Positions 1-59,826 of a stretch of 64,000 nt of DNA are shown in pieces. How positions within the stretch are numbered: position 1 is the first letter of the stretch; each line of letters opens with the position of its first letter. Both the position numbers and the translations under genes were made by a program. This stretch comes from a virus: the UHGV virus genome UHGV-0229283, one strand, 5' to 3'. The notes below the pieces were generated by a model. The model was not told the DNA's origin, searched no databases, and saw only the letters and a list, made by a program, of their open reading frames with translations.

Positions 1-53
1 CGATAGTGTTCGTTCCGAACAGGCTGCATAACCATTTGAAAAATTTTCGGATT

Positions 54-365
54 TTATTCATTCCAATCTACCTCTTCAAGAATCTCTCTCCGTGGAGGAA
101 CAAGAACCCCGTTAGCTGCTAAAAGGTTAGCAAACTTCCGGTAAACATGCCGAGTTTCTTTTCCCGCCAGATGACACAGTTTGATCGCCCGAACATGCTT
201 GGCCTCTTCAGAGTACATATACTCATAATTGATTACCTTCGCTTGTTGTCGCGTTACACCAAGTAGTTCTGCGAAAACAGAGTGAGGATCAGCTTGTGGC
301 TTACCATAGGCCTCTGCCCAAGCATCTGGGACAAGACCACTAACACCAAGTTCATCAATTAGCAT
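54..365 (-). CDS. hypothetical protein (103 aa)
   Basis: Intact ORF co-oriented with and abutting neighbouring minus-strand genes; no recognisable motif. Confidence 0.45.
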   Translation of the reverse strand: MLIDELGVSGLVPDAWAEAYGKPQADPHSVFAELLGVTRQQAKVINYEYMYSEEAKHVRAIKLCHLAGKETRHVYRKFANLLAANGVLVPPRREILEEVDWNE

Positions 366-639
366 AAAATTCCTCCAAAACTTTCCAGATTGTATTTAAT
401 TCGCCCCCGGACATCAGGGACCAAATCACCATGTCCTGATAACCTTTACGGCAGATGTCAACCTGCCGGAATGCTTTGTGGAAACTTGGTGGATCGCGGA
501 AGTCCACTGGTAGGTCATCTACATTTTTCTTGAAATATGAGAGAACTAACTGTTCTTCCAGATTAGGATTGTCCCCTAAGCTTGCCTCATACATCTCAAC
601 AAACTTGGCACCTGTGCGTTCTTCACGAGTTAAAGCCAT
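355..639 (-). CDS. hypothetical protein (94 aa)
   Basis: Compact co-oriented ORF with a short overlap to its neighbour. Confidence 0.45.
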   Translation of the reverse strand: MALTREERTGAKFVEMYEASLGDNPNLEEQLVLSYFKKNVDDLPVDFRDPPSFHKAFRQVDICRKGYQDMVIWSLMSGGELNTIWKVLEEFYAN

Positions 640-998
640 TCTCCAGCCTCCATTTGTTTCGGTGTCAGAGTCTTTACCTGATTATCATCAACAGGTGCAA
701 ATCCAACAACAGGTTTATAACAGCGCTCTTTCTTTGCATCAAACACATAGAATGATGCCACAGCCTCTGGCTTTGCGCAAGTAGTATAATGGCGCTTATA
801 CATTCCATAACCACCTAAGTAAGTCACTGCCCAGAACATTACCCCAAATATTACGGCTGAAAACACATAAGAGGCCACTTTTCCCTTCCAAGTAAGCCCT
901 CCCGACAATAACCATCCTATGTAGGAAAACATAGCAAGCGGGATCAGGCTAGATACCCAATTGTGATTCATTGTAAACCATTCCCAGAATCCAATCAT
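630..998 (-). CDS. small integral membrane protein (122 aa)
   Basis: Several long hydrophobic stretches (WEWFTMNHNWVSSLIPLAMFSYIGWLLSGG; VFSAVIFGVMFWAVTYLGG). Confidence 0.45.
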   Translation of the reverse strand: MIGFWEWFTMNHNWVSSLIPLAMFSYIGWLLSGGLTWKGKVASYVFSAVIFGVMFWAVTYLGGYGMYKRHYTTCAKPEAVASFYVFDAKKERCYKPVVGFAPVDDNQVKTLTPKQMEAGEWL

Positions 999-1687
999 AT
1001 ATTACCCCCTCCAAAATTGGTTGTTTCACGTAAATTTGAAATGTCTTCCAGTATACCGTCTACAACTTCCGTAAAGCGTTGAATCACTCGCACATCCTTG
1101 TAGGGTTGTTTCTCATAACCAGTCAGCAAGCGAAATATGTTCCTGCACTTTTCTTTTTGCCATGCCAGATGGGCCAATTGCGGATTCTCATAGTAGCCAA
1201 GACTTTTATATTTATTCTCGACCATTATGTAGGCTCTGTATTTCATTCTTGATGAAACCCAGCTAACTCCCAGTGGTAGCTCTTTAATATTCTCTTTTTG
1301 GTGAGATAGTACAGAATTCAATGTTGATGGAACCAGAATGCAAGTGACAGGCGAGTACAGTTTACCATTCCCCAGTATGTCCTTGTCAAGTTGAAACTTT
1401 ACTTCACGTTCTTTAATGGGTAAGTCCAGCTCTTTCAGCCATATATCGTGTTGTTTTTGACTCTGCACCCAAAGTTTAAAAGCCATGAATGAGTGCCAAC
1501 TAGTATCCACAATACAACCCAAATAGGATGGATCACTTTTACCATAACAACGTTTCAACATACTCTTCCACAGAACAAAGTAAGGGCATTTTTTAGCGTG
1601 TACTGTCCTGCCTGCCACTCTTTTACCCGGTTCGGTAACATAGGGGGCGTCATTAACGCCCACCCCGTACACTAGTTTTCTAGCCAT
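995..1687 (-). CDS. AP2-like DNA-binding domain protein, homing-endonuclease-associated family, paralog 1
   Basis: Start at the internal Met (MARKLVYGVGVNDAPY) avoids overlap with pnuC. The YGVGVNDA..W.SML.RCY...Y.G..V...W..F..F..W pattern is that of the AP2-type DNA-binding domain found in phage HNH homing endonucleases. Paralogous to 34269..34895 and 40732..41310. Confidence 0.5.
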   Translation of the reverse strand: MARKLVYGVGVNDAPYVTEPGKRVAGRTVHAKKCPYFVLWKSMLKRCYGKSDPSYLGCIVDTSWHSFMAFKLWVQSQKQHDIWLKELDLPIKEREVKFQLDKDILGNGKLYSPVTCILVPSTLNSVLSHQKENIKELPLGVSWVSSRMKYRAYIMVENKYKSLGYYENPQLAHLAWQKEKCRNIFRLLTGYEKQPYKDVRVIQRFTEVVDGILEDISNLRETTNFGGGNI

Positions 1688-2384
1688 TCTTTCTCCATTT
1701 ATACCAACCATAAAGAGAGTTAAGCCAGAATGTGACCCACATAGCCAAAATTGCAGAACCAGCTCCTTGATGATGAATCGTAGCTTGTACCCACATAACA
1801 ATTGCAACAGTGTTCACCAGTAGCCAAATCAGCCATTGTTCTGCATAACGAACCATCATCAGGTAGGTTGCCAGAACCGACAGGATTGCTGTAGCAGAAT
1901 CGAGACCCGGCATACTCCCTTTCAGCAGGCTAACGAACTCGGCGTATAATCCGATAGTCACCAATGTCCCGATACCAACAATCCAGCGCTGTTTTGTGGT
2001 CAGATACTTCTTGATGACATCCGCACGTTCACCATCCGCAGAGACGGTTAACTTACGCGCCCAGATTACCCCACCAATGACCTGCATGGGGGTGAACAAC
2101 AGGGTGTACATAATCGTCTCACCGTACAACTTGTACGTGAAGGAGATATATGCATACAGCACCGTTGCCACAAAGCCCCAGTAATAACTGGAGAGCTTAC
2201 CTTTTGCCACCAGGATAGCTCCGATGATCCCGGTAACAGAAGAGATGAACTCTACTAACCCACCGCCCATAGTCAAGGAGACAATGGCGATCGATGCCGA
2301 GCAGATGAGGAGCCAAAGATATTCAAGTTTTGACCAGCCATAAAAGTCGGTCCACGCTGTCTTAATGTACAGATTTGTGTTCAT
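1680..2384 (-). CDS. pnuC: PnuC-like nicotinamide riboside transporter
   Basis: 234 aa polytopic membrane protein. The segment VRYAEQWLIWLLVNTVAIVMWV resembles E. coli PnuC RKYVENWLLWVIINVISVVIF. A YGWYKW motif is present. It sits about 1.5 kb from a nadR-like gene. Confidence 0.7.
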   Translation of the reverse strand: MNTNLYIKTAWTDFYGWSKLEYLWLLICSASIAIVSLTMGGGLVEFISSVTGIIGAILVAKGKLSSYYWGFVATVLYAYISFTYKLYGETIMYTLLFTPMQVIGGVIWARKLTVSADGERADVIKKYLTTKQRWIVGIGTLVTIGLYAEFVSLLKGSMPGLDSATAILSVLATYLMMVRYAEQWLIWLLVNTVAIVMWVQATIHHQGAGSAILAMWVTFWLNSLYGWYKWRKNG

Positions 2385-2386
2385 GG

Positions 2387-2644
2387 TTATTCTCCTGTTA
2401 ATCGTTTAAGAAGCGCTTCGATTTTAGGATTCGCTGCGCCGTTACCGTATAACTTATACTTCAGATCCAACACTGCGTCAAGCAGTTCTGGTGCTGCTGC
2501 GATAAGATTTGCATCTTCAATACTATTAATCTCTGAACACACGTCGCTGTAAGATCGCCACCCGGAACCTACCTCAAGAGAGCCTGAGACAATGACCTTT
2601 ATTTCATCGTCATCATGAAATACTTCCCATGTATCTTTAGCCAT
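2387..2644 (-). CDS. hypothetical protein (85 aa)
   Basis: Co-oriented compact ORF. Confidence 0.4.
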   Translation of the reverse strand: MAKDTWEVFHDDDEIKVIVSGSLEVGSGWRSYSDVCSEINSIEDANLIAAAPELLDAVLDLKYKLYGNGAANPKIEALLKRLTGE

Positions 2645-2873
2645 TTTTGCGCCCCTTTTTCTTTTTATTTTTCATTTCTGACCGAACTTTAGTTTGCCAA
2701 GCCATTGCTTCGTCAACAGCATTCGGTCCGTCAAAAACTTGGTTCTTCTCATCTGACTTGAACACAAAATTAGTACCTTTGTTATCCATTGCCTGGAAAA
2801 CCCAGCCTGTCAGTGTCTCCTCGATGATCTTACCGCCGATCAGCAGACCATTACTCTTTGCATGAATTGCCAT
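2637..2873 (-). CDS. hypothetical protein (about 78 aa; start moved to internal Met MAIHAKS with GGAGGG RBS)
   Basis: An internal ATG is preceded by GGAGGG. The longer ORF would overlap its neighbour. Confidence 0.35.
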   Translation of the reverse strand: MAIHAKSNGLLIGGKIIEETLTGWVFQAMDNKGTNFVFKSDEKNQVFDGPNAVDEAMAWQTKVRSEMKNKKKKGRKNG

Positions 2874-2875
2874 TT

Positions 2876-3025
2876 TTAACCCTCCATTACAACTGGTAAG
2901 ACAGACCTGATCCCATCTCGCCATGCTAACCAACACATCACTTGTAGGTTTTCACGCTCCTCTGCATCTGGAAAAAGATGTGCGGGTGCGTTTTTATCAA
3001 ACCAGCCCATAAATTCTTTAGACAT
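2876..3025 (-). CDS. hypothetical small protein (about 49 aa; start at MSKEFMGWF with AGGAGT RBS)
   Basis: An internal ATG with a good RBS removes overlap with 3018..3356. Confidence 0.3.
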   Translation of the reverse strand: MSKEFMGWFDKNAPAHLFPDAEERENLQVMCWLAWRDGIRSVLPVVMEG

Positions 3026-3356
3026 TTTGACTCCTCTGTTTTGCCCATTCGATTGCCGCAAGTATCACATCACAGTGACATGCTACCTCTTTGTTCGGCT
3101 GTTTACAGAAGCATACAAGGTCTTTACCATCCAAGTCAAGCAAATCTTGAATAGTAATTTTCCCCGAACGTATCTGTTGCCATAACCATACACGGTATCG
3201 TTCAATGGTTGCTCCACGGGGTTCATCTTTCGACAACTTATATGGATTGGCAAATTTAGATTGCTTCAAGCCTAGATGGGGCATTGCTCGCCCCATGTAT
3301 TCAGCATTCTCAGGTATCACTTTACCGATGTGGTAAAAGTTGAGAACTTTAGCCAT
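3018..3356 (-). CDS. DUF4326-like phage protein
   Basis: The C-terminal CFCKQ....CHCDVIL motif is typical of the DUF4326 family (recalled from memory). Confidence 0.4.
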   Translation of the reverse strand: MAKVLNFYHIGKVIPENAEYMGRAMPHLGLKQSKFANPYKLSKDEPRGATIERYRVWLWQQIRSGKITIQDLLDLDGKDLVCFCKQPNKEVACHCDVILAAIEWAKQRSQNV

Positions 3357-3594
3357 TGACCAGTTCCGGATGTAGGCGACGGTACAACTCCTGAGTCAAC
3401 TCGCGAATCCAGATAACGATAGGGACTTGCAGATAAGTATCCAGCAGGTCAGAAGGGTCATCTGTCCCAGGTTCTACCAGCAACCAGTTTATAGCGTTAA
3501 CAATATGCTCATCAGACATGTGGCTAATTCGCATATCAAAACCCTCCTGGGTTTTCCAGACCAGGGTCGGCTTAGTTTGCTCCATCTTTATCAC
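3349..3594 (-). CDS. hypothetical protein (81 aa)
   Basis: Co-oriented ORF. Confidence 0.4.
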   Translation of the reverse strand: MIKMEQTKPTLVWKTQEGFDMRISHMSDEHIVNAINWLLVEPGTDDPSDLLDTYLQVPIVIWIRELTQELYRRLHPELVNG

Positions 3595-3937
3595 CTTTCA
3601 GATATGCGATGATCCAGTCTGCCGCTTCTTCGAACCCCTCATAACCAAAGAATTTCCGGCGATTGAAATAGGTATCGTCCGTAGGGATGTTGGTTTGGAA
3701 ATTGAAGTCCCGTGTTGACCCATAGTACACAGTGATCTGGTCACTGTTACGGCATTCAGAGAATGACACTTGACGACAATTATCTTGCCCACCTGAGTAG
3801 TCCAACTTCATGATGGAGAAGCCCTGCTCACGGCAGTTCGCATAGGCCTGGAGGCCCTGGCCTAACTCTGGAGCTTTTTCAAGGACGAGCTTTAATACAC
3901 CAAACGCTTGGTACATACTTGAGTTTGTAACATCCAT
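3572..3937 (-). CDS. hypothetical protein (121 aa)
   Basis: Co-oriented ORF abutting nadR. Confidence 0.45.
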   Translation of the reverse strand: MDVTNSSMYQAFGVLKLVLEKAPELGQGLQAYANCREQGFSIMKLDYSGGQDNCRQVSFSECRNSDQITVYYGSTRDFNFQTNIPTDDTYFNRRKFFGYEGFEEAADWIIAYLKGDKDGAN

Positions 3938-3938
3938 C

Positions 3939-5012
3939 TTATTCTCCTTTTATATTCAGCAATTTACGGACAGCTTCTTCGGCTTTCTGAGTACGTTCTT
4001 TGTAATCACTGCCGGAGATAACCACCACCTTGCTTGTATCGTAAGATGTCCTGATCATTGTGTCAAGCAAAGAATGTGTTTCTTTACGCTTTTCTGGCGT
4101 ATCCTGCAAGCGAAGAGGATCAGCAACCCACGGGACCTCTGGTGTTAGGAACAGGAATAGGTCGTAGAAGTTGTAGCTCTCTTCACGGCTCAGTGTGCGG
4201 AACAGAAGATCGGAGTAGTCGATCTTGTCTGCACAAATACCAGAGAAATGAGTGATCAGGTTTGTGGTGTCAGAGAACATAACCCCACAACCACCCCAAC
4301 CAGCTAACTCCATTTCCTTCAGGCGATGCTCCATTGCGATACGAAGATAGTCTCCACGAGACATTGCTAACTCACTGGAGTGGTATTCACGCTCACAGAT
4401 AAGCCTCCCGATCTCAGGAATCCAACCAGCACCGAAGGTATGCGCCAGATGTTTTGTCAGGGTTGTCTTGCCCGTACTCTCAACACCAATGATGGCAACC
4501 TTCTTCATGAAGCGCTTACGTGCAGGCCACGCTAGGTTGTAGAAGTTGTTGTACGGATCATTACGGATCATCGTGGCTGAGATAGGAACAGCTTTACGTT
4601 CTGCGTCGATAACTACATGCTTCGCTTCAGGGAAGAACTCACTGAAGTAAGACTCATACTCCGGCTCAGAAGAGAAAGCAAAATCGTACTTAACGAACGG
4701 TTGCTTTTCACGGATCAGTTTTGCATAGGCAGCACTGCCTTCAGGGTATCCTGGGATATTCGACTCATCAACGTAGTCAACCTTCACGTTGTCCAAGCCC
4801 TCATCGGCAATAACATCCAGCAGGTCACGATAGCGATCAGCAAGCCCCAGCTTTGGACGGACCCACTCTGGTTGTGCGTCAACAAACTTCTGGTCGTATG
4901 ACAGGAACAGGTACAGAGCACCAACCTGAGAAGCCGCCTGGCGAATGAATTCAATATGTCCGTTGGTCAGCGGTGCAAATTTTCCGAAGATAAGGCCACG
5001 GGTCATAGTCAT
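3939..5012 (-). CDS. nadR: NadR-like bifunctional NMN adenylyltransferase / ribosylnicotinamide kinase
   Basis: The N-terminal GKFAPLTNGHIEFI is the (H/T)xGH nucleotidyltransferase motif of NMNAT. The C-terminal GVESTGKTTL is the Walker A of the RNK domain. Length is 357 aa. Confidence 0.75.
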   Translation of the reverse strand: MTMTRGLIFGKFAPLTNGHIEFIRQAASQVGALYLFLSYDQKFVDAQPEWVRPKLGLADRYRDLLDVIADEGLDNVKVDYVDESNIPGYPEGSAAYAKLIREKQPFVKYDFAFSSEPEYESYFSEFFPEAKHVVIDAERKAVPISATMIRNDPYNNFYNLAWPARKRFMKKVAIIGVESTGKTTLTKHLAHTFGAGWIPEIGRLICEREYHSSELAMSRGDYLRIAMEHRLKEMELAGWGGCGVMFSDTTNLITHFSGICADKIDYSDLLFRTLSREESYNFYDLFLFLTPEVPWVADPLRLQDTPEKRKETHSLLDTMIRTSYDTSKVVVISGSDYKERTQKAEEAVRKLLNIKGE

Positions 5013-5257
5013 TTGCTTTTCTCCATTGATTCAAGGGCAATGCTGTATAGAACTTGAGTCTTCTTCATTTTGGCAAGTTCCACTTCAAGCTCTGCGATTT
5101 TAATTTTCAATTCAAGGGTGTCGCGTTTCAGTAGGGACTTTGCCAGTTCACTATCAACGGACTCGTTAATATCATTCGGGTTTGCTTCAGGATAAAACTC
5201 TGTTGCTTGTGCAGAGCAAGAAAGCGCGAGCAGGGTGGCTAGGATAATCTTTTTCAT
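5009..5257 (-). CDS. small secreted protein or lipoprotein with coiled-coil (82 aa)
   Basis: Signal peptide MKKIILATLLALSCSAQA with a possible lipobox Cys, followed by the heptad-like LELKIKIAELEVELAKMKK. Confidence 0.5.
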   Translation of the reverse strand: MKKIILATLLALSCSAQATEFYPEANPNDINESVDSELAKSLLKRDTLELKIKIAELEVELAKMKKTQVLYSIALESMEKSK

Positions 5258-5290
5258 TTGAATCTCCTCTTGAGATTATTTAGTCAGAAT

Positions 5291-5497
5291 TTAGTAGCGA
5301 GACCACTTCACGCGACCACCGTCGCAGACCAGTTTGTTCTCAACGACAATGCCATCCGCACTGTTTGCCAAGCGTTGTTCACCGTTAGGCTTACAATTAT
5401 GAGTGACGGTATCTGCTGTGTCAACAACAAAAAGCGCCACTACCACAATTATTCCAACGATTACTAAAGGTTTCACCCAAGGCATAAATCCACGCAT
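5291..5497 (-). CDS. small N-terminally anchored membrane protein (68 aa)
   Basis: Single N-terminal TM (PLVIVGIIVVVALFVV) followed by a short periplasmic tail; lies just upstream of the lipoprotein gene. Confidence 0.4.
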   Translation of the reverse strand: MRGFMPWVKPLVIVGIIVVVALFVVDTADTVTHNCKPNGEQRLANSADGIVVENKLVCDGGRVKWSRY

Positions 5498-5799
5498 TAT
5501 ACACCACCATTCTGTTCTAGCAAGAAAGCATATAGCTCAGTAATGATACCATCATCCAAGAAAGTCTCATATTCCCCAGTCGCACCACTTTCCTCCCACT
5601 CATCTAAACCAGTACGAGCGCCTCTAAGTGCGGCAGTCCATGCTTGAGGATACTGACCTTCATGACAGTTTTTCTGAATTTCTTTTGCGTATTCAAATAC
5701 TTTAACAGCTGGAAGCTCTTCAGTGAATTCATTAAACAAGGTGAATTCTTCACTTTTGAAAATGGTATCGTCTTTTTGAAAACCAAGGGTACGTTTCAT
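5497..5799 (-). CDS. hypothetical protein (100 aa)
   Basis: Co-oriented ORF. Confidence 0.45.
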   Translation of the reverse strand: MKRTLGFQKDDTIFKSEEFTLFNEFTEELPAVKVFEYAKEIQKNCHEGQYPQAWTAALRGARTGLDEWEESGATGEYETFLDDGIITELYAFLLEQNGGV

Positions 5800-5868
5800 T
5801 TTTTCTCCTGTTGGTGGTAGTCACTTAACAATAAAGCCCCTCAACCATGAAGTCAAGGGGCTTTTGAA

Positions 5869-6228
5869 TTATTTTTGCAGATGCTTAATGTAGTCCCGCA
5901 AACCGCAAATCATATTATATTTTACCGTTTCTTCTTCGGTGAGCGGCCTGACTTCTTCATCCACACCAACATTGTTGTGGTGGTCCCACCCGGCGTCTAC
6001 ATGGACAAGTACAAGAAACTGTTCATACCCTCTTTTACGTGTTTCCCACACGGCCCGCTCACCAGTAAAATCTGCTGGCAAGCTATAGATGAAGTTCCTC
6101 AGCAGTTCTTTGGTGAGGACATCTGCGAGGTAGTCTGGTGTTTGTGCCTTGACAATATTCATGATCTCTTCATCAGAGATATCTACTTCCACATTCTGTA
6201 CAATAGTTTGTTTGCCAGTTACTTTCAT
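5869..6228 (-). CDS. hypothetical protein (119 aa)
   Basis: Co-oriented ORF. Confidence 0.45.
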   Translation of the reverse strand: MKVTGKQTIVQNVEVDISDEEIMNIVKAQTPDYLADVLTKELLRNFIYSLPADFTGERAVWETRKRGYEQFLVLVHVDAGWDHHNNVGVDEEVRPLTEEETVKYNMICGLRDYIKHLQK

Positions 6229-6273
6229 TTATCCTCCAACACAAAAATGCCCCGAAGGGCCTTGGCGGGCAGA

Positions 6274-6678
6274 TTACAGAGATTCCAGCTCTTTCAGGAT
6301 CTCTTCACGAGACATCGCTGCATCTTTCTCGTTATCCTTCTCTGCCAGCAGGTCCAGAAGTTTACGCTTACGCTCAACCTTCTCTTTCGCTGCCTGGCGA
6401 TCCGCGATCTCCGCTTTACGCACCGAGATGATGTACTTCAGGATATCCAGCTTCAGGTTTGCTTCGCCATTTACAGCACTGGCCTCGACAACGAAACTTT
6501 CTTCAGCAGATGCTTTCACATCACGGTTAGCCAGTTTGGAAACCGTATCCAGGCTGGTATTACCAGTCATCGGCAGATCCCACAGATCTTCTGTGGTCAG
6601 TAGACCTTTCGGGCTTGCAAAACGCAGTTTTTTACGGGTAGCCAGTTCGAACAGGGTCGGTGCGTTGATGATAGCCAT
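6274..6678 (-). CDS. hypothetical protein (134 aa), charged coiled-coil C-terminus
   Basis: Co-oriented ORF with a KE-rich C-terminal helix. Confidence 0.45.
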   Translation of the reverse strand: MAIINAPTLFELATRKKLRFASPKGLLTTEDLWDLPMTGNTSLDTVSKLANRDVKASAEESFVVEASAVNGEANLKLDILKYIISVRKAEIADRQAAKEKVERKRKLLDLLAEKDNEKDAAMSREEILKELESL

Positions 6679-6695
6679 TGTTTTGTTTCTCCTCT

Positions 6696-6914
6696 TTAGT
6701 TTTTTAAGATGCCGCGCTCTTCAAGAATCGCGACTAATTGTGCTTCTGTTGCCCGGTAAGTGAAGGAGTGCAACATCTTCTTTGCAGTAATGTATGCACA
6801 CCCGAACTCTTTACACACTCTTTTGTAAGGATTCTCAACCTCTGGGGAAGAGAACCCTTCCAGACATGCAACAAGTCTATCAGTTACCGGGGTTGGTTGC
6901 AACCCCGTTTTCAT
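6696..6914 (-). CDS. hypothetical protein (72 aa)
   Basis: Its start is coupled to the stop of the 676 aa gene. Confidence 0.35.
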   Translation of the reverse strand: MKTGLQPTPVTDRLVACLEGFSSPEVENPYKRVCKEFGCAYITAKKMLHSFTYRATEAQLVAILEERGILKN

Positions 6915-8944
6915 CAGAATTTAATCTTCAGGGTGCGGTTGAAAGAACCAGTAACCTTCACAACCAACTCGTTACGCTGGGTAGACGAGAAGCCCAGGCC
7001 GCTCAGTTGATCAGTGGAGTGTTCAGCTTTGAGCTTGGAACCCAACACTTCGAACACTTTACGATGCTCATGCAGCTCGTCACGCAGATACTCATTATAG
7101 AAGCCACGAGTATCGTCAGGGTTAATGCAACCTTCCAGCATAAAGAAGTAGTGTTTGTTACCTTTGGTCTGACCATCCCAGAAGTTAGGAGAATTCAGCA
7201 CCAGAGAAACTTTCTGGAAGGTCTCGGTAGAGACGCCCCATACTTCTTTCGATTGCTTAGTATGCCCGATGCTGTCTACAATTTCAACACCTTTCGCACG
7301 AGAATACTTAAAGGTTACAACGGTCTGGCTCTTGCTATTACCCAAAGCTTGCGGGTATGCAAAGTTGAACACTTGGCCTTTGTATTCCATCTGTACTTCG
7401 AAGCCAACGCGATCAGTCATGCGCTTATTATAGTTGTTAACAACAACCTTGTAAACACCTTCCGTGATATTACGCTCATTTTCCCACGTAACGTTCTCAA
7501 CCGGATGGTGTGCGTCTGACTTGCCATAGGCATTCATATCCACATCCAGCGTACCCGTTGAGCGACCACGTTTGTTACCGAAGTAAATTTGACCGCCACC
7601 AGGCTCGAATACGTGCAGGTCGAGGTCATCACTGTTGTACCAGGACAACGAAACACGCAGGTCACCAGTCACGCTACCGCCAGCGGCTTTCACACGCTCC
7701 TTGATGGAGTCAGTTACTTCGCCATTATACGACCAGGAGAAGCCGTTATCCCATTTGAACAGGTTAGGAGCACCTGCGTTTGCCGGGGCAACCAGGCTCA
7801 TCAGGTTCGGTGTCAGACGACCTTCAACCAGCGCTTCGATAGTGTCCGCTTTCGGCAGAACGTTATTGATGAAATCCTCAATGCTGATCTCTTCTACTTT
7901 CGACAGTGACTTCGGCGCGTTTTTGGTTGACGCTGCCAGTTGCTCGAATACGTTCATCTGGGCCTTTGCAGAACGGTCAGCAAACAACACGTTGTTGATC
8001 GTCAGGTCAGAGGTCACCGCAAAGCGACGTGCCAGAGATTCAGTCAAGCCGAGGGCTTCAACCTTCTCTTGTGCTGCCTTGATCATGCCCGGAGTTACCA
8101 GAGCTGTAGTACGCTTGTAGTTGGTCCCTGAGACTTTGTCTTCAAAGGACTTCACTGCGGCTTCAAGATCAATACCTTCTGCCAGATCGCTCATCAGTGT
8201 ACCGATGACATCATTACGGAAGCGGCCCAGTTTACCCAGCGTTTCACTTTGTTTCCAGCAGAAGTTCATTCGCTGATCTTCCGGCGTTTTGTCGTATGCA
8301 CGTTTCGCCTTAATAAAGGCAGCAACAATGTGCTTTTTCTCATCACCACGGTACAGAGAGCCTTGGTTGATCAGGTCCATTACCGTTTCGGCAGAGTCCA
8401 TATCGATATCTTTCAGAGAACGTGCCAGCACAGTTGCGTTGTCACGGTACTCACCCAGGGCAGAAGGGATATCTTCACCACGTTTAACCAGTTCGCGAGG
8501 CAGGGCCTGATGGAAGTGGGTCCAGGTTTTGGTTTTCCCATTTTCCAGGAGAACTACGTTGCTCTCAGTACCAACGCGGCCTTCGAAGTGGAAGAAGCGA
8601 TCGCGGATCTCGGCGCTTTCAACACGCGCTTTCATCGCATCGGCAACAACTTGGTAGTAACCACCAACTTTAACGTCCCAAATAGAGACCAGCTTGCCGT
8701 TGTGAATCGCGACTACTCGGCCCAGAGTACGGATGTAGCTCTTGCAGCAGTTACAGTCATATTCACGGCGCTCTTTATACATCAGATTGGTGCCTTCCGG
8801 GAAAGAGTCGAGGTACAGATCGTACAGTTCATCTTTCGGTACATCGACCGTGTAAAGCGCACCCAGCGCTTGCATGACAGCGAACTGAGCTTTCAGAGCT
8901 TTTACGAAGTCAGCGTAAGGTACGGTTTCATATTTTGCGGTCAT
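6914..8944 (-). CDS. large hypothetical protein (676 aa) with DUF2135-like C-terminal domain
   Basis: Long intact ORF. The C-terminal LRVSLSWYNSDDLDLHVFEPGG...GTLDVDMNAYG resembles the DLDLhV motif of DUF2135/YfaP-type domains (recalled from memory). Confidence 0.55.
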   Translation of the reverse strand: MTAKYETVPYADFVKALKAQFAVMQALGALYTVDVPKDELYDLYLDSFPEGTNLMYKERREYDCNCCKSYIRTLGRVVAIHNGKLVSIWDVKVGGYYQVVADAMKARVESAEIRDRFFHFEGRVGTESNVVLLENGKTKTWTHFHQALPRELVKRGEDIPSALGEYRDNATVLARSLKDIDMDSAETVMDLINQGSLYRGDEKKHIVAAFIKAKRAYDKTPEDQRMNFCWKQSETLGKLGRFRNDVIGTLMSDLAEGIDLEAAVKSFEDKVSGTNYKRTTALVTPGMIKAAQEKVEALGLTESLARRFAVTSDLTINNVLFADRSAKAQMNVFEQLAASTKNAPKSLSKVEEISIEDFINNVLPKADTIEALVEGRLTPNLMSLVAPANAGAPNLFKWDNGFSWSYNGEVTDSIKERVKAAGGSVTGDLRVSLSWYNSDDLDLHVFEPGGGQIYFGNKRGRSTGTLDVDMNAYGKSDAHHPVENVTWENERNITEGVYKVVVNNYNKRMTDRVGFEVQMEYKGQVFNFAYPQALGNSKSQTVVTFKYSRAKGVEIVDSIGHTKQSKEVWGVSTETFQKVSLVLNSPNFWDGQTKGNKHYFFMLEGCINPDDTRGFYNEYLRDELHEHRKVFEVLGSKLKAEHSTDQLSGLGFSSTQRNELVVKVTGSFNRTLKIKF

Positions 8945-13273: not shown

Positions 13274-15337
13274 TTAAATTACATAAATTGCATGTTTTGC
13301 GTATTGCAATCCTATCGGGGCGAAAGGCGTATCATCGTCAGGACCAAGAGTAGGGACTGGTGTCCTATCAAGATCGATGGTTGGCTTATACTCAGGTGCC
13401 GGAACATTTACCTTTCCAACCGGAGTTTCCAGAGAGAGTTGATGGATCAGACTCTGAGGACGAAGCATAACTTCACCATTAAGCTTGAACATCCCATCTT
13501 CCCATTCCCAGCCGGAAGCATCGGAGAACTGCCCGTTGTCATCCATAACCATTGTATCAGCGATACCCAGTTTTTTGTGTGGGCGGTTCTTCAGCACCAC
13601 GATACGTACACGCCCACGGGAGCGGTCAGGAAGCTCTTCTGGTTCAACACCCAGAACCACCCATGAGAGTTGTTCAAGGGCCGCAGAACCGCGCAGGTCT
13701 TCTTTACGGACCGGATACCAGAACGGCAATAGATTCCCATCTTTATCTTTCGGAAGCTGAAGTTCTTTACGCTTCATGTGGCTGATTGATAAGATGAAAA
13801 CATCGTACTTCTTACAGAAAGCTGCCAGCTCGGTCATGATGTTATCAAGGTCTCGACGTTCGTTGTCGGACTTAAGACCAGAGATTACCATTGACAGGTG
13901 ATCGAGGATGATCCATTTACAACCATCAAGGAACACCATCTGCTTAAGTTTCTGAATAAGCTGGTCTGTCGGGATAGAACCGAAGTGATCAAAGATCTTA
14001 ATCTTATCTTCCCGAATCCAGCGTTGGTGAATCTCAAGGTGTTGCTCTTCGGTTAAGAACTGCTCCGGGTCAGCAACAAATGCCTTAGGGTCCACCTTCA
14101 GCTCTTCAGCATACAAGCTGTTTACAGACTCTTCTTCATCCTCTTCCAGACGGATGATGGCTACTTTCTCACTCTCGGTCCAGCCATCTAGGCGGGGAAT
14201 TGACATATCACGAAGATAATCAATGATCGCGTATTCAATCTTACGAGAGATTGTAGACTTACCACCACCAGACGGGCCTGTCAATGTCCAAAGCTCACCA
14301 GTACGGGGGCCACGGGTCAGGTTATATAGGCCGGGTAGCCCTGGTAATGGAACACCATCTTTTTTCTTCTTGCGAAGATTCTCAATGGTAATATCCTTAA
14401 GACCGATAAGCTTATCAGGAACATAGCGATCGTCTGCTTTGGTAAACATTGCATAAAGCTCGCGTACCTTACCTGCATCATACATGTCACGAATGTCTTT
14501 AAAGCCATCCGGGTCATTACGCTCGTTAGGATATCGCACAACGTAAATATTTTCTGACAGCAGGAAGCTAGCGACATCGTCGGTTGCTTCTTTACCTTTC
14601 TTTATTTTCTTTTCTTTTTCTAATGCTGTGGCTTCGTCGTTATCAAAGCCCAAGACTACCTTCTCATAACTGCGAATGAACTTCTCGTTGTTTGCGAAAG
14701 TATCAACAGCGTTTGCAGTACCACAGTTTAATCCAACATAGGGTAGTGTCGGAAGACCTCCAATGTCCTCGTCGTTCTGAATATGACGGATACCTTTTAA
14801 GATGCTATCCGCCCAGTCTTTAACGCCTTTACTGGCCTTTGGACTGGTGGACATAGCCTTAACCATCTCATACGCTGCCTGCCATGCGGCGCATACGTCA
14901 CCTTCACCTTCCACGATATTGATCTGCTTACGACCAACACCCATAGAGGCTTCATGCTGCCCGAAGAACTGAGATGATGCCTTCACAGCACCAACAGTTG
15001 AAAAGTGTCCTGTCTTTTCCTTCTGTAACGTCCAGTCACGTTTCTTGAATCCCGTCAGTTTCCCATACTTATCATAATAAGGCAAGTATGTTGCTACCGG
15101 GGTGATACCATCCGCCGGGGATACCGCAGAACGGATCTTAAAATACTGTGCTGCTTCAAGAGAGAGACTCATTTCGGGAACAGCCATGATGCGGGTGCCA
15201 GACAGCACTGATTCCAGGGTCTCTTCTACTCGATTGTTACTATAACTCAACTTGCCTCCGCGATTACTTCCAAAACCTGCTCTTGGGTTTTCATTGCCAC
15301 CTTTCCTATAGGCCGCCCAATCTGGTCCATTACCCAT
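13274..15337 (-). CDS. T7 gp4-like bifunctional DNA primase-helicase (TOPRIM plus DnaB-like SF4)
   Basis: 687 aa. Walker A TGPSGGGKSTIS. FILSISHMKR helicase motif. IVEGEGD and FDNDEA are TOPRIM acidic motifs. Confidence 0.85.
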   Translation of the reverse strand: MGNGPDWAAYRKGGNENPRAGFGSNRGGKLSYSNNRVEETLESVLSGTRIMAVPEMSLSLEAAQYFKIRSAVSPADGITPVATYLPYYDKYGKLTGFKKRDWTLQKEKTGHFSTVGAVKASSQFFGQHEASMGVGRKQINIVEGEGDVCAAWQAAYEMVKAMSTSPKASKGVKDWADSILKGIRHIQNDEDIGGLPTLPYVGLNCGTANAVDTFANNEKFIRSYEKVVLGFDNDEATALEKEKKIKKGKEATDDVASFLLSENIYVVRYPNERNDPDGFKDIRDMYDAGKVRELYAMFTKADDRYVPDKLIGLKDITIENLRKKKKDGVPLPGLPGLYNLTRGPRTGELWTLTGPSGGGKSTISRKIEYAIIDYLRDMSIPRLDGWTESEKVAIIRLEEDEEESVNSLYAEELKVDPKAFVADPEQFLTEEQHLEIHQRWIREDKIKIFDHFGSIPTDQLIQKLKQMVFLDGCKWIILDHLSMVISGLKSDNERRDLDNIMTELAAFCKKYDVFILSISHMKRKELQLPKDKDGNLLPFWYPVRKEDLRGSAALEQLSWVVLGVEPEELPDRSRGRVRIVVLKNRPHKKLGIADTMVMDDNGQFSDASGWEWEDGMFKLNGEVMLRPQSLIHQLSLETPVGKVNVPAPEYKPTIDLDRTPVPTLGPDDDTPFAPIGLQYAKHAIYVI

Positions 15338-23985: not shown

Positions 23986-25300
23986 TGCGGGGCTAAGATG
24001 CTATAATTTTACTTATGGGTCAACCCCTTATTAAGGATATTTTTTGCAGCATTAATGTCTGCATTCTCAGTATGACCGCAAGAAATACATAAAAATTTAG
24101 CTTGTGTTTTCCTGTTTTCTTTTGATACATACCCACATCCAGAGCACGTCTGAGAGGTATATGCTGGATTAACAATCATTAACTCACTTCCGTACCTGAT
24201 CGTTTTGTAAGCTAACTGCATACGTACCGAGTATAGACTCATATTTAGAATCTCTCGGTTAAGCCCTGTTTTAGCCTTCACATTTTTACCAGGCTGTTCA
24301 ATCGTTCCTTTTGACGATTTCGTCATATTGGAAACTTTCAAATCTTCCAGAACAATTTTGTAGGATTTTGTAGCCAACTTTTTAGTAAGTTTGTGGCAGG
24401 CGTCTTGGCGAATACTCCCTTGTTTGGACTTGCGTACAGTGATCATTTCGCCAAGCTTTTTGTATCTTGCGCTGCCTTTCTGGCATTTGGCTTGCTTACG
24501 TTGAAGAATACGAATACGTTCTTCAAGAGCCTTTAACGATTCTTTAGGATACTCCTCATGCCATGCTGTTTCACTATCTGAATCATAGCATGTTGCATAC
24601 TGTGCAACACCTAAGTCAACACCAACACACATTTCCCTTTTATTAGAGATCTGATAATAATCTTCGTCAGGTATTTCAAAGATGAAAGCAACATACCAGT
24701 CACCAGCAGTTTTGCTGAACGTGGTATTCATAAGTTTCCCATTCAGGATACGTGCAGGTATCTTATCTCCCAGTTTCATCTTTCCAAGTCTGTTGTGGAT
24801 GATGTAAGCCCCAACGTCATCAAGATTCTTTTCCTTTTTGAAGTCTGTATTGCTTAATTTAAAACCTTTCCTGCGATGCTTTGATTGAAACTTGGGTCTG
24901 CCTCCAAGCTTTTTGAAGCATCGCTGCCATGCCTCTTTGAGGTCATACTTTATAGCAAGCTGGCCAACACTACCGGGTATCCCATTTAACCATGTGTGGA
25001 TTCCTGAGCCTAACATTACTCCAGATTTTGTTGGCTTTTTAAAACCGAGAGGGTATTTACCTTGGTTAAAAAATTTATCGTATTCATTTATTTTTGCCAA
25101 TTTCCATTTTTCATCAGGAGATAGGGTTTCTTGGTCTATGAAACATAACCCTAATGCATAATTAAAAGCATAACGTCTGGCGTTGCTCCAATGAAGAAGA
25201 GTGCTGTTTTGGCGATTATTTGTACCAACTTTTGTTTTAAAACCTACCATCATGATAATCATCTACCTGCGCTGTTAAAGTTCATTCCGACAGTACCACA
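23975..25300 (-). mobile_element. IS200/IS605-family tnpB-only element (boundaries approximate)
   Basis: A TnpB gene with no tnpA. A stable hairpin (AGCCCCGCAATGGGGCT) sits at its 3' end where the omega RNA / right end would lie. Exact ends were not determined. Confidence 0.4.
24009..25262 (-). CDS. tnpB: TnpB (IS605 OrfB-family RNA-guided endonuclease)
   Basis: 417 aa. RuvC-I VGVDLGV, RuvC-II IVLEDLKVSNM, zinc finger CSGCG...CISCGH and RuvC-III NADINAAKNI are all present. Confidence 0.85.
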   Translation of the reverse strand: MIIMMVGFKTKVGTNNRQNSTLLHWSNARRYAFNYALGLCFIDQETLSPDEKWKLAKINEYDKFFNQGKYPLGFKKPTKSGVMLGSGIHTWLNGIPGSVGQLAIKYDLKEAWQRCFKKLGGRPKFQSKHRRKGFKLSNTDFKKEKNLDDVGAYIIHNRLGKMKLGDKIPARILNGKLMNTTFSKTAGDWYVAFIFEIPDEDYYQISNKREMCVGVDLGVAQYATCYDSDSETAWHEEYPKESLKALEERIRILQRKQAKCQKGSARYKKLGEMITVRKSKQGSIRQDACHKLTKKLATKSYKIVLEDLKVSNMTKSSKGTIEQPGKNVKAKTGLNREILNMSLYSVRMQLAYKTIRYGSELMIVNPAYTSQTCSGCGYVSKENRKTQAKFLCISCGHTENADINAAKNILNKGLTHK

Positions 25301-25347
25301 CTACGTGAGGAACGTGATAGAATGGAGAGTTCGTGCATACAGTCCAG

Positions 25348-25495
25348 AGGTTATCCCCACATATTTTGGGGGCACCTGATATCTGTGATACGCTAGGAGG
25401 ACTACATCGGTTTATCCCACATTGTGGGGAACACGGGCAGCGATTTGTAGCGATCCGGGTTGGCCTCGGTTTATCCCCACGCATGTGGGGAACAC
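25348..25495 (-). CRISPR. orphan mini CRISPR array: 3 type I-E-like repeats (29, 27, 28 nt) and 2 spacers of exactly 32 bp; no cas genes
   Basis: Read on the minus strand, R3 at 25467..25495 is GTGTTCCCCACATGCGTGGGGATAAACCG. R2 at 25408..25434 is GTGTTCCCCACAATGTGGGATAAACCG. R1 at 25348..25375 is degenerate. The spacers are 25435..25466 and 25376..25407. Repeat flanks GTGTTCCCC and GGGGATAAACCG and the 6-4-6 hairpin geometry match the enterobacterial I-E repeat consensus (from memory: GTGTTCCCCGCGCCAGCGGGGATAAACCG). Confidence 0.7.
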
Positions 25496-25786
25496 TCTAA
25501 CCGTAAACATATGGCAACCTTAGTGTTTTAAGCCCACTTAAAATCTACCGAGTTGTGTTCCCAAATTTGTAGAGATAGGAGCAAAGCTCCTGAAGGACTT
25601 ATGCAACTAAGTTGCAGCCCCCTTCTTCCTTCATAGACTCGCTAATGCTTATCTCCAGAAGCATAACTTCGGCGTTAACCACACCTAGAGGATTGGCTCC
25701 CAACAAGAGACACTATACAGTGTCTCTTAATTGGAGTCAACAATTATTTTCTAAGAATATCCCCTGAAACTGTTTTCACATTACCT

Positions 25787-25978
25787 TCAATAAACTTCTG
25801 TTCTGGTCTCACCACTTTTAATGATCCTCGCTTTTTGGGCATGATAGACAAACTGTTTGTTCTCTTTAACAAACTTTTTGCCCTGTTCTTCGTCTTCGAA
25901 AATCAAGGTATCACACTCGGTGAAAGAATGTCCAGGCCTTTTTTCAACAGACCGCGTTGTGGCTACAATGAGGGACAT
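25787..25978 (-). CDS. hypothetical protein (63 aa) between the RNA ligase and the array leader
   Basis: Its start is coupled to the RNA ligase stop. Confidence 0.35.
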   Translation of the reverse strand: MSLIVATTRSVEKRPGHSFTECDTLIFEDEEQGKKFVKENKQFVYHAQKARIIKSGETRTEVY

Positions 25979-27069
25979 TAGCCCTCCTCACTCAGACGAG
26001 TCATGTACCATGCACGAGCTTTGTTGCTGATAAACTTGCCAACATCTTTCATGGTCATGGAGCTGGCTTCCAGAACATCACCCTCTTCCTTGTTGATGTC
26101 TCGGTTAATCCACCCAATGAATTCACCGATCTTAGTCTTGTCAAGACCGACTTCGCTGACACCCTGCTCAAGACGTGCTTCCGTCACAGCGTACTCAACG
26201 AACTCACGCATACTTGCGAGGCGTTCTGGGTCGATTGCCGCCAGGGTCTTAACTTTGGATACAGAGTGTTTATCACCTTTGACTTTAAACCACAGGCCAG
26301 AGATTTTAGAAAGCTCAGGATCTTTTGGAGACCAGACAATGCCTTCACCGATACCTTCTACGCCAAAGAACTTACCTGCCGGGCATTTGTTTTCCACTTC
26401 ACGAGTCAGTTCTGCCAGGTCATTCTGGACAAGTTCCGGCTCATTGAATGGGATATTAGCCATCCAGTAACCGAAGTCAAGGATACTGTAGATACGAGCA
26501 TCCGGCAATCCAATTCCAAACTGGAACGTTGGTGGTAGCCAGTTGAGGGTATCCGTTGCCTCATCCCGTCCCACAGCCACACGGAAGATAGCAAAGAACG
26601 GCTCTACTTCAGTGATGGCAACACCTTTCTGAATGCCACGCCCAGCCCATTCACCAGCAATTTCAACCGGGAACTGGAACTCGACGTCATTGACTTCACA
26701 CAGGTATTTAACCTGTGAAAGCAACTCTGCGGTGTCTTTTCGAGACATGAAGGCCGCGAAGCCATTGTTATCGTCGCCTACAGTCACGACACGCTCTTTG
26801 GACTGGAAGACAACTTCATCCTCAGAGTGGAATACCACACTGCCATTAGTGCCGTGAAGCTTAACCGTACCGATGTACGGGATCAGGTACGCTTCCGGTG
26901 GCAACACCTTTCGCTTGATATTACCCTCTTCATCAATACCGTCGAACGTCAGTTTATCATGCATGGTGCGGATAACCTGACGGAACTGTGCGGTGCTTGG
27001 GTATTTAATTGGTTTTGTCAATTTTATTCTCCTCAAATAATTTGCTAATGTGTCCGCCAGAAAGTTCAA
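25978..27069 (-). CDS. Rnl2-like RNA ligase (ATP-dependent nucleotidyltransferase)
   Basis: GTVKLHGTNGSV matches the KxDG/KIHGTN motif I of T4 Rnl2. Length is 363 aa. Confidence 0.7.
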   Translation of the reverse strand: MNFLADTLANYLRRIKLTKPIKYPSTAQFRQVIRTMHDKLTFDGIDEEGNIKRKVLPPEAYLIPYIGTVKLHGTNGSVVFHSEDEVVFQSKERVVTVGDDNNGFAAFMSRKDTAELLSQVKYLCEVNDVEFQFPVEIAGEWAGRGIQKGVAITEVEPFFAIFRVAVGRDEATDTLNWLPPTFQFGIGLPDARIYSILDFGYWMANIPFNEPELVQNDLAELTREVENKCPAGKFFGVEGIGEGIVWSPKDPELSKISGLWFKVKGDKHSVSKVKTLAAIDPERLASMREFVEYAVTEARLEQGVSEVGLDKTKIGEFIGWINRDINKEEGDVLEASSMTMKDVGKFISNKARAWYMTRLSEEG

Positions 27070-27262: not shown

Positions 27263-27554
27263 GACTATTCAGCCATTCGTCAATCTGAATACCCGTGCCG
27301 TCACCACTTGGTTTCTCTACCCCAAGTAGTAGTATGGCAAAGCTCTGACCACGAGGGGCGTTATAGGTTAACACCGTATTACCCACATAAAGGTCGATCT
27401 TTTTGGTATGTGCTACCATACCGTCTCTCAATTTAACCACGATAATCCAGTCCCCCCTGTGGATAATCCACATTTTGTCATTTCCCGAATGGCAGCGATC
27501 TGTTCTGATGTCAGAGGGCCGTCGTCTGGAGGGTAGTAACCAGGGATTTCCCAT
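27231..27554 (-). CDS. hypothetical protein (107 aa or shorter)
   Basis: Overlaps the macro gene 3' end. Uncertain start. Confidence 0.3.
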   Translation of the reverse strand: MGNPWLLPSRRRPSDIRTDRCHSGNDKMWIIHRGDWIIVVKLRDGMVAHTKKIDLYVGNTVLTYNAPRGQSFAILLLGVEKPSGDGTGIQIDEWLNSRGWKLEGPDE

Positions 27555-28039
27555 TCTTTCAAGACATAAACTGTCACATCACAATCAAAGAAGATTGATT
27601 TGATCATTGCCTCGATGACGTTCCAGTCACCGCCTGCAAGGCCCGCACCAATTTTAGGGAAGCCAATTTTGTAGTCAGCCATAGAACCGTCTGTAAAGCT
27701 CTGTAAGAGCTTTTTCATTTCAACCATCGAATCATACAAGGCATTGTAGTCGAGGTCCCTGAGGCCCTGTTTACGGAGAGTATAGCCATATTGTGAGTAC
27801 AGATTAAACCCTGCGACTGTACCGTCCTTCAGGAAGGCCATTGTATAGGTTCCAAGTTTGGCTTTATCACCCTTCTCGGTCTTGAGATCCGCAGCGTACA
27901 TTTTGGGGAACGCTTCTTTGACCAACGGGGCGATACCCCTGCCCATAGCGCAATGGCAATTACAACCGTGAGCGAACACGTTAACTTCACCGTTCTTAAC
28001 GGCCTCGATCAGGTCTCCAACTTTATATTTCAAGCTCAT
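27428..28039 (-). CDS. macro domain protein (Poa1p-like ADP-ribose-1''-phosphate phosphatase family)
   Basis: VFAHGCNCHCAMGRGIAPL resembles the Poa1p-like macro signature (hCxs.d..mGaGIA). Length is 203 aa. Confidence 0.55.
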   Translation of the reverse strand: MSLKYKVGDLIEAVKNGEVNVFAHGCNCHCAMGRGIAPLVKEAFPKMYAADLKTEKGDKAKLGTYTMAFLKDGTVAGFNLYSQYGYTLRKQGLRDLDYNALYDSMVEMKKLLQSFTDGSMADYKIGFPKIGAGLAGGDWNVIEAMIKSIFFDCDVTVYVLKEWEIPGYYPPDDGPLTSEQIAAIREMTKCGLSTGGTGLSWLN

Positions 28040-55157: not shown

Positions 55158-55360
55158 TAATAGTAATCCTCAGGTCCACCCATATACCAGGAGTCTGGTG
55201 CATCACCCAGATCAGCCTCTCCCCAGTCACGGCTCTTTTTGCCTTTGGTCTGTTCCTTTCCAAAAAGAGCAGTCCCGTCAAGAAGGTGGCCCATAGCTTT
55301 CTCGCCCTTTTTGACGATCCTTCCACGGGCATTCCATTCTTCAAATGTTCTGTAGGCCAT
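55157..55360 (-). CDS. hypothetical protein (67 aa)
   Basis: Coupled ORF. Confidence 0.35.
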   Translation of the reverse strand: MAYRTFEEWNARGRIVKKGEKAMGHLLDGTALFGKEQTKGKKSRDWGEADLGDAPDSWYMGGPEDYY

Positions 55361-55369
55361 AATTTTCCA

Positions 55370-55648
55370 TCACCAAAGAATTACATAGTTATGCTTCAAG
55401 CATCTCTTCATACCATGAAGGTCGGCCTGAATGCACAAGATGACCAGCTCACGATCGAAAGATGTCATGCCGTCTTCATGGCAACTCTTTACATAGTTTT
55501 CGATCCAAACTTCATCTGTTAACAGCGCCTCTGTGGTAGCAATTTCTTGCTTTATCCACTCACGCTCTTCAGGTGTTATTGGGGTCCCCATCCTTGCATC
55601 CGTAAAGATATTCATGGTGTCATCTCCCACCAAACATTGAACATCCAT
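55370..55648 (-). CDS. hypothetical protein (92 aa)
   Basis: Co-oriented ORF. Confidence 0.4.
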   Translation of the reverse strand: MDVQCLVGDDTMNIFTDARMGTPITPEEREWIKQEIATTEALLTDEVWIENYVKSCHEDGMTSFDRELVILCIQADLHGMKRCLKHNYVILW

Positions 55649-55845
55649 GCTGAAAGAAATGCATGGGCAATCATCATGAGACCAGGGAAAACAAACGGAT
55701 CTTCTTTTTTACGAAGCAGGAGTGTTAATCCCTGCAACCCACAGCAAACCGTGTTCAAAATGAACAAGAAAAACGTAAATACTAAGACAAACATATCCTT
55801 ACTCCCAAAGACCAAAGTGATTAAGTACCGCGATGATGAGAACAA
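55612..55845 (-). CDS. small membrane protein (77 aa)
   Basis: Two hydrophobic helices. Confidence 0.35.
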   Translation of the reverse strand: MFSSSRYLITLVFGSKDMFVLVFTFFLFILNTVCCGLQGLTLLLRKKEDPFVFPGLMMIAHAFLSAWMFNVWWEMTP

Positions 55846-56006
55846 TGGCTACGACTTTCAGGATAAAAGGCAGACATCCGAGGTTCTCATAAACACCGCT
55901 TCTTTCCGCATTGAAGTGATCGCGGACGATCGCTCTCATTATCCAGAAATTCATAGCTCCTCCTCTTGATTAGATACCCTGAGGATATATTACTATCCAT
56001 GAGGTG

Positions 56007-56324
56007 TCAAGGCTCTTTTCCAAAAAGAATACGATCATGACCGACAATAGCCTTCGTCTTTTCCTTCAGAGCGAACCGCTTTGTCCAGTCAGCCATGTCC
56101 TGAATGTACCAACAAGCCTCTGCCGCTGCACGAATATTCGCTACATATTCGAGTGCGCCCTGATACCCACGAGAAACACCCTCCGCCCACCGGATACCGC
56201 CCCTTTTTGCTTCCAGATGCTCTAATGCCTTCTTAACATTTTCCATCATCGACCTCCAGCAGATATTTTTGCCAGCGGCGCATACTGACATCATGGAGTT
56301 TACGACTGCCAAGGAGATTTGCAA
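56007..56324 (-). CDS. hypothetical protein (105 aa)
   Basis: Co-oriented ORF. Overlaps its neighbour. Confidence 0.35.
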   Translation of the reverse strand: MQISLAVVNSMMSVCAAGKNICWRSMMENVKKALEHLEAKRGGIRWAEGVSRGYQGALEYVANIRAAAEACWYIQDMADWTKRFALKEKTKAIVGHDRILFGKEP

Positions 56325-56547
56325 TCTTCCATGATTTTACTTCAGGAAATTCCTTTTTTACAACACCTTGAAGATGCCCGTTTATTTTTCTACGGGTCTC
56401 CACTGCACGTTTATAACCTTTAGTTTTGAACAGGCTACACCAGGTGTCTCTGGTATTTGCATCGATGCTGAAACTTCTCATCACTAACTGGAAGATACGC
56501 TGGCGGTGGCCCGTGCATGTCTCATCGAGGACATAATAATTTTTCAC
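56233..56547 (-). CDS. hypothetical protein (104 aa)
   Basis: Co-oriented ORF. Confidence 0.35.
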   Translation of the reverse strand: MKNYYVLDETCTGHRQRIFQLVMRSFSIDANTRDTWCSLFKTKGYKRAVETRRKINGHLQGVVKKEFPEVKSWKIANLLGSRKLHDVSMRRWQKYLLEVDDGKC

Positions 56548-56634
56548 AAGAACTCCTTCACAAAAAGATCGACGGCAAAATCCAGGCCCCGGCGTAGCGG
56601 GGGTACTGGATTTGGACGGCGCGGCGCTTCGCGC

Positions 56635-57760: not shown

Positions 57761-57772
57761 ATTTTATCCTCA

Positions 57773-59259: not shown

Positions 59260-59267
59260 GAGATAAA

Positions 59268-59824: not shown

Positions 59825-59826
59825 TT

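Follow-up and report, generated by a model that had tools for sequence, protein, structure and literature searches.

Phages carry genes that rebuild nicotinamide adenine dinucleotide (NAD+) during conflict with their hosts. A catalogue of NAD+ synthesis genes with which phages oppose NADase effectors includes phage NadR (Iyer et al. 2022). The gene was later reported to share an operon with PnuC in most cases, and the same study proposed another NAD+ reconstitution pathway (Osterman et al. 2024). The pathway was named NARP3 by Yan et al. (Sci Adv, August 2026; PMC13464706), who characterized Bas30_86 and Bas30_87 of Escherichia phage TrudiRoth (PDB 9X6F/9X6H). According to that study, Bas30_87 binds and imports nicotinamide riboside (NR), and Bas30_86 converts NR to nicotinamide mononucleotide (NMN) and then to NAD+ in vitro. 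The system requires both genes, restores NAD+ and rescues T7 and lambda from Sir2-HerA and DSR1, with a rescue of 10^3-10^4-fold. Here we describe a nadR-like gene and a pnuC gene in a 64,000-nt stretch of virus genome UHGV-0229283 (hereafter the window), which belongs to a Klebsiella myovirus of the genus Mydovirus (Vequintavirinae). With a probability of roughly 0.72, this pair is a working NARP3-type NR salvage route, most likely one that rebuilds NAD+ destroyed by Sir2-HerA or DSR.

A NadR-like enzyme without a repressor domain

An earlier reading of this DNA, made from its letters alone (the sequence-only reading), had proposed an NR importer and a bifunctional NR kinase/NMN adenylyltransferase. 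We found both open reading frames (ORFs) with the boundaries that it gave, on the minus strand, and their matches to profiles and solved structures lie far beyond chance (Table 1). The Pfam families expected for the transporter and for the two enzyme domains were all recovered. The NadR-like ORF, which has the full length of its homologues, also matched TIGR01526 (E = 1.1e-51) and phrog_3462 (E = 1.6e-139). Its alignment to the NadR model NF005988 (411 positions) runs from position 65 to 408, and the first 64 positions, which correspond to the helix-turn-helix (HTH) domain, are not covered. Since the match begins at position 65, the N-terminal HTH is missing, suggesting a purely enzymatic protein with no regulatory role. 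Its top match among solved structures is 9X6F, Bas30_86 itself (E = 1.7e-58), and the bacterial NadR structures score behind it in the range of 1e-25 to 1e-29 (8X7F, 1e-29; 1LW7, 3e-26). The ATG of the nadR-like gene overlaps the stop codon of the upstream ORF (5009..5257) by 4 nt.

We aligned the window proteins with those of four other phage lineages. One of them is Salmonella phage S114, which encodes a NadR-like protein with 100% identity to 9X6F across 340 residues. The sequence-only reading had staked its proposal on the catalytic residues, and these are in place. All four canonical motifs are found, comprising GKFAPLTNGH (residues 10-19) and ISATMIR (144-150) in the NMN adenylyltransferase (NMNAT) domain, and the Walker A motif GVESTGKT (176-183) and WVADPLR (295-301) in the ribosylnicotinamide kinase (RNK) domain. 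The first NMNAT motif is the T-x-G-H variant with threonine, as in the biochemically active Bas30_86. The NARP3 paper names 17 functional positions of Bas30_86, and 14 of them carry the same residue in the window enzyme. In the NMNAT domain these are K11, F12, S38, E83, P87, G92, F113, S115, V142 and I144; in the kinase domain, K166, K171, E233 and D284 correspond to K163, K168, E230 and D275 of Bas30_86. At two further positions the change is conservative (D115 of Bas30_86 is E118 in the window enzyme, and R167 is K170), and the only one that differs is D164, now R167, which was named in Bas30_86 from docking only. Among the 13 Bas30_86 positions tested by mutagenesis (K10, F11, S37, E80, P84, G89, F110, S112, D115, V139, I141, E230 and D275), 12 are identical in the window enzyme, the exception being D115.

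A PnuC transporter and the predicted NR salvage route

The pnuC ORF is also full length compared with its homologues. It matched PF04973 with 127 bits (E = 1e-36; cut-off 27.3), phrog_1880 (E = 7.8e-76) and TIGR01528, 'nicotinamide riboside transporter PnuC', with 111 bits, exceeding the curated equivalog cut-off of 42.45. Its product matched the structure of Neisseria mucosa PnuC (4QTN) across 219 residues (E = 3.5e-39) and contains several hydrophobic 19-mers. Two NR-contact residues of Bas30_87, Q94 and N180, are kept as Q101 and N191.

The two families, the two enzyme domains and the conserved residues are thus consistent with the complete route from NR through NMN to NAD+ that the sequence-only reading had put forward. 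PnuC would reside in the inner membrane of the host during infection and admit external NR. The kinase domain of the NadR-like enzyme would use ATP to convert NR to NMN, and the NMNAT domain would adenylylate NMN to give NAD+. The pair would therefore rebuild NAD+ from imported NR and not from the breakdown products of NAD+. A counter-measure to NAD+-depleting defences, also suggested in the sequence-only reading, is plausible, because this mechanism has been demonstrated experimentally against Sir2-HerA and DSR1 for the homologous Bas30_86/87 pair.

Table 1. Features of the NAD+ locus and of related genes in the window (positions in nt).
Feature	Position	Strand	Evidence
pnuC, PnuC-family nicotinamide riboside transporter, 234 aa	1680..2384	-	Profile and structure matches
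Shine-Dalgarno site of pnuC (AGGAG), 8-12 nt before its ATG	2392..2396	-	Read from sequence
nadR-like gene, NMN adenylyltransferase/ribosylnicotinamide kinase, 357 aa, without HTH	3939..5012	-	Profiles, structures
NMNAT domain, residues 8-151	4560..4991	-	PF01467 (CTP_transf_like), E = 1.5e-5
Ribosylnicotinamide kinase P-loop domain, residues 171-340	3993..4502	-	PF13521 (AAA_28), E = 1.9e-21
Shine-Dalgarno site of the nadR-like gene (GGAG), 9-12 nt before its ATG	5021..5024	-	Read from sequence
Block of six small intervening ORFs	2387..3937	-	3572..3937, 3349..3594, 3018..3356, 2876..3061, 2637..2936, 2387..2644
DUF4326 (T4 NrdA.1-like) protein, 112 aa	3018..3356	-	PF14216, E = 2.4e-18
HNH homing endonuclease, directly downstream of pnuC	995..1684	-	phrog_953, 2.5e-74
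RNA ligase	25978..27069		PF09414
Macro-domain protein, Poa1p/OARD1/BT1257 type, near the RNA ligase	27428..28039	-	PDB 2AFC, 1.8e-7

Occurrence of the pair in Mydovirus and in other phages

Bases 1400-5400 of the window show 93-97% nucleotide identity to phages Iguana_ER37, KpS8, KB57, Mydo and KpS11, and KpS11 is colinear with the whole window, small mosaic insertions excepted. The GenBank records of these relatives already label the genes as 'nicotinamide-nucleotide adenylyltransferase' and 'PnuC-like nicotinamide mononucleotide transport'. In Iguana_ER37 (14110..15179), the NadR-like match falls into two tblastn segments (328 aa and 30 aa) near the C-terminus, which suggests an indel or a frameshift. 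This split hints that the gene can be disrupted within the clade, as would be expected if one or both genes were inactive, decaying remnants. We give that idea almost no credence for the window, where both ORFs are full length with all motifs and Shine-Dalgarno sites, and where many independently isolated relatives keep NadR at 93-99% and PnuC at 90-99% identity.

By tblastn, 725 phage records, including 48 of Klebsiella phages, contain a NadR-like gene and 780 contain a PnuC-like gene, with nearly equal counts per host. Among independent NadR-like loci from IMG/VR, 18 of 22 also have a PnuC gene within 10 kb on the same strand, mostly 2-330 nt away. The NARP3 survey of Yan et al. (PMC13464706) reported 124 hits, about one of which is from Klebsiella. 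Given the 725 records found here and the fact that the two genes may be non-adjacent, searches based on adjacency or close homology under-count the system.

The spacing of the two genes varies among lineages. They are adjacent in the NARP3 prototype and in ICP1, with gaps of 5-19 nt, and are separated by one small ORF in FBKp34 and in an Erwinia Henunavirus. In Vequintavirinae-like loci the gaps are 409, 746, 1,179, 1,554 (the window), 1,644 and 2,007 nt. In FBKp34 (1..5942), Namat-like and Adps-like genes are divergently oriented and adjoin the NadR and PnuC genes, so that a single NAD island is formed. The window proteins share 69% (PnuC) and 40% (NadR) identity with those of FBKp34, and this discordant divergence suggests independent exchange of the two genes.

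The NadR-PnuC cassette is present in ICP1 isolate 2017_DRC_32 (3989..5749). The ICP1 reference (NC_015157) lacks it; the corresponding site there is flanked by ORF25-27 and by the homing endonuclease ORF28. The cassette is thus accessory in other lineages, which fits a conflict-related gene. We had considered a comparison of ICP1 with Nezha as a natural experiment on the sufficiency of the pair; it was rejected, because the ICP1 reference lacks the cassette and only some isolates carry it.

The split layout and its bearing on function

The sequence-only reading spoke of a pair. Both genes are indeed present; adjacency, however, did not hold, since 1,554 nt with six small ORFs lie between them (Table 1). 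The whole array from 5257 down to 995 is encoded on a single strand with intergenic gaps of at most 2 nt. This organization, together with good Shine-Dalgarno sites, fits one transcription unit, and the nadR-like gene and pnuC are probably transcribed together. The matches of five of the six intervening ORFs, all but the DUF4326 gene, are limited to PHROGs of unknown function, and the content of this block differs among relatives.

Several points weigh against a working, defence-related salvage route. The genes are non-adjacent, unlike in the prototype operon, and a promoter and terminator scan of 600..7000 gave 14 sites against 10 expected, which is no better than shuffled sequence. Both window proteins share only about 36% of their residues with the NARP3 prototype. 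The enzyme scores under the curated NCBIfam NadR cut-offs of NF005988 and TIGR01526 (163 against 201 bits and 176 against 341 bits). The third NR-contact residue of Bas30_87, N45, is replaced by G52 in the window PnuC; glycine occupies the equivalent position in four of the five aligned PnuC lineages. The rescue by NARP3 is NR-dependent, with a half-maximal effective concentration (EC50) of 3.6-5.6 µM, so that a benefit needs micromolar external NR, and the evidence for it comes from plasmid co-expression and not from a native phage (PMC13464706). If NARP1 is also encoded by the window phage, as in its relatives, the pair may be partly redundant. The argument for the role of the pair is, moreover, one of homology throughout.

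The six intervening ORFs, the non-conserved contact residue and the discordant identities to FBKp34 could also mean that the genes are functionally uncoupled, with PnuC importing another pyridine or vitamin nucleoside, or with the NadR-like enzyme acting only as an NMNAT on NMN from elsewhere. We consider such an uncoupling very improbable. PnuC scores above the equivalog cut-off for NR transporters, the kinase-domain residues for NR phosphorylation are kept, and same-strand linkage recurs across the independent IMG/VR loci. In addition, the only other NAD genes of the relatives are those of NARP1, in which an NMNAT has no place. The NR salvage reading is carried by the observed family membership, domain architecture, residue conservation and intactness of the two genes, and by their co-occurrence and co-orientation across phage lineages. 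From these features we infer enzyme and transport activity, and a counter-defence role, in the window phage.

NAD+ metabolism in the window and in its relatives

We searched the window by tblastn with the Namat-like and Adps-like proteins of KpS11 and found no NARP1 or NARP2 genes. KpS11 and all the listed Mydovirus relatives carry adjacent genes labelled 'Nampt' and 'Prs', plus a Sir2-like deacetylase, none of which is encoded in the window. In the supplementary tables of Osterman et al., the proteins of KB57, KpS8 and Mydo are entered as Adps-associated Namat. They belong to NARP1, a pathway that forms NAD+ directly from ADP-ribose (ADPR) and nicotinamide and needs no NMNAT. Because of this classification, we rejected a NARP2/NARP3 hybrid in which the NadR-like NMNAT would be shared with a branch of Nampt and phosphoribosyl pyrophosphate (PRPP) synthetase. 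In the relatives, NARP1 lies about 50 kb from the pair, outside the region matching the window. This type of genome therefore probably has two independent routes for rebuilding NAD+, NARP1 (seen in the relatives) and the pair described here.

The macro-domain protein of the window also matched the yeast ADPR-1''-phosphate phosphatase (6LFU, 3.4e-5) and phrog_335, 'phosphatase' (3.7e-63). Adpp, a recently described NARP1-associated phosphatase that extends NARP1 against aRES, is closest to the Poa1p/OARD1 family, and the macro-domain protein may be related to it. It is known that aRES yields ADPR-1''-phosphate. Since the NR route is independent of NAD+ breakdown products, it should complement NARP1 and work against defences with products that NARP1 is unable to use, such as aRES. 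A layered system in Mydovirus-type phages is conceivable, and we propose it tentatively. NARP1 would recycle ADPR and nicotinamide, the macro-domain phosphatase would convert ADPR-1''-phosphate to ADPR, and the NARP3-like pair, independent of breakdown products and hence protective against aRES, would be non-redundant with NARP1. In such a system the split layout would mark the pair as a long-resident module that is maintained independently, as opposed to a recently acquired cassette.

The sequence-only reading had also suggested that the pair supplies NAD+ for macro-domain and RNA-ligase chemistry elsewhere in the window. This idea found no support. RNA ligases of the PF09414 family are ATP-dependent, and a macro-domain protein of the Poa1p/OARD1 type acts on ADP-ribose derivatives and is not an NAD+ consumer. 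No NAD+-consuming enzyme was found among the scanned ORFs, which are a part of the ORFs of the window.

A broader form of the metabolic explanation is that the pair raises NAD+ for replication and for NAD+-using enzymes of the phage itself, irrespective of an NAD+-depleting defence in the host, so that any counter-defence effect would be incidental. The array that holds both genes is located just downstream of the replication genes, the relatives encode the Sir2-like 'NAD-dependent protein deacetylase' and extensive nucleotide-metabolism genes, and NARP2 reportedly raises NAD+ even without a defence system. On the other hand, the rescue by the homologous pair is specific to Sir2-HerA and DSR1 and very large, and the cassette is accessory and patchy among lineages, as conflict genes, unlike core metabolism, typically are. 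We therefore regard a general metabolic booster as unlikely, though by no means negligible; the two roles are compatible and not mutually exclusive.

Neighbouring genes and mosaic segments

We also investigated the DUF4326 gene between nadR and pnuC. DUF4326 was placed in a rhodanese-phosphatase superfamily, with a predicted action on ribose-linked phosphates of ADP-ribose products (Iyer et al. 2022). It is found close to the NadR/PnuC pair in every Vequintavirinae-like locus, at varying positions, and is 88% identical to the copy in the Erwinia phage (60% for NadR and 79% for PnuC). We nevertheless rejected DUF4326 as a third component of the pathway, because copies with 70-73% identity exist in relatives without NadR or PnuC within 6 kb, namely Escherichia phage Antha and Cronobacter phage PBES 02. 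DUF4326 is also widespread, with 941 phage records of diverse types. In view of its retention in relatives without the pair and its wide distribution, we regard it as a conserved backbone gene. A search of solved structures with DUF4326 gave no match. It is very highly conserved across Vequintavirinae, and GenBank often mislabels it as 'NrdA-like ribonucleotide reductase'.

The HNH homing endonuclease is a flanking mosaic insertion outside the NAD+ pathway. It is missing downstream of pnuC in Iguana and KpS11, and KpS11 has two other genes at this site, a 72-aa ORF and a gene for a DUF1190 protein. The 3' end of pnuC (1680..~1832), corresponding to the last ~50 codons, is divergent from that of Iguana and KpS11, whereas the remainder is nearly identical. 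Raoultella phage Ro1 and Klebsiella phage KP12 have both the HNH endonuclease and the window-type variant of the pnuC 3' end. This association looks like homing-linked co-conversion.

Two larger segments of the window have no counterpart in KpS11. A 7.1-kb segment (55359..62465), without a megablast match in KpS11, encodes a CapR-homology-domain protein (58294..59259; PF21817, 2.2e-13) and an RlaP-type RNA-repair nucleotidyltransferase (61365..62438; PF10127, 5.8e-15). The other, a 1.8-kb segment (23995..25790), contains a TnpB/IS605 OrfB-like gene of 417 aa (24009..25262, minus strand; PF07282, 8.7e-21; PF01385, 1.1e-15; phrog_506, 2.8e-72), located between a cell-wall hydrolase gene and the RNA ligase gene.

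Comparison with known NAD+ systems

NARP3-type NR salvage reaches well past the T5-like Salmonella and Escherichia phages in which it was defined. The culturable Mydovirus group offers a natural setting for NARP3 in a native phage. The probable presence of two independent NAD+ routes in a therapeutic-candidate Klebsiella Mydovirus also bears on the prediction of host range against strains with Sir2-HerA, DSR or Thoeris.

Like the window pair, NARP1 (Adps and Namat) and NARP2 (Nampt and Nmnat) rebuild NAD+ during infection (Osterman et al. 2024). The substrates differ: NARP1 uses ADPR and nicotinamide, NARP2 uses PRPP and nicotinamide, and the window pair would use imported NR. The bacterial NadR and PnuC proteins of E. 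coli, Salmonella and H. influenzae (1LW7, 8X7F, 6GYE and 4QTN) have the same folds and chemistry and align over their full length. However, the window enzyme lacks the HTH repressor domain and is only about 28% identical to enterobacterial NadR, and nadR and pnuC are linked in the phage, whereas they occupy separate loci in E. coli. The closest system is the NARP3 prototype, which shares with the window both protein families, the HTH-less NMNAT and RNK architecture, the T-x-G-H variant, the same-strand arrangement and the gene order with nadR upstream of pnuC. The prototype, with about 1-5 nt between its genes, comes from a T5-like siphovirus of the Demerecviridae, and the window from a Vequintavirinae/Mydovirus myovirus. 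NARP3-type phage NR salvage has thus already been published, and the window pair is a diverged and split example of it in another phage family.

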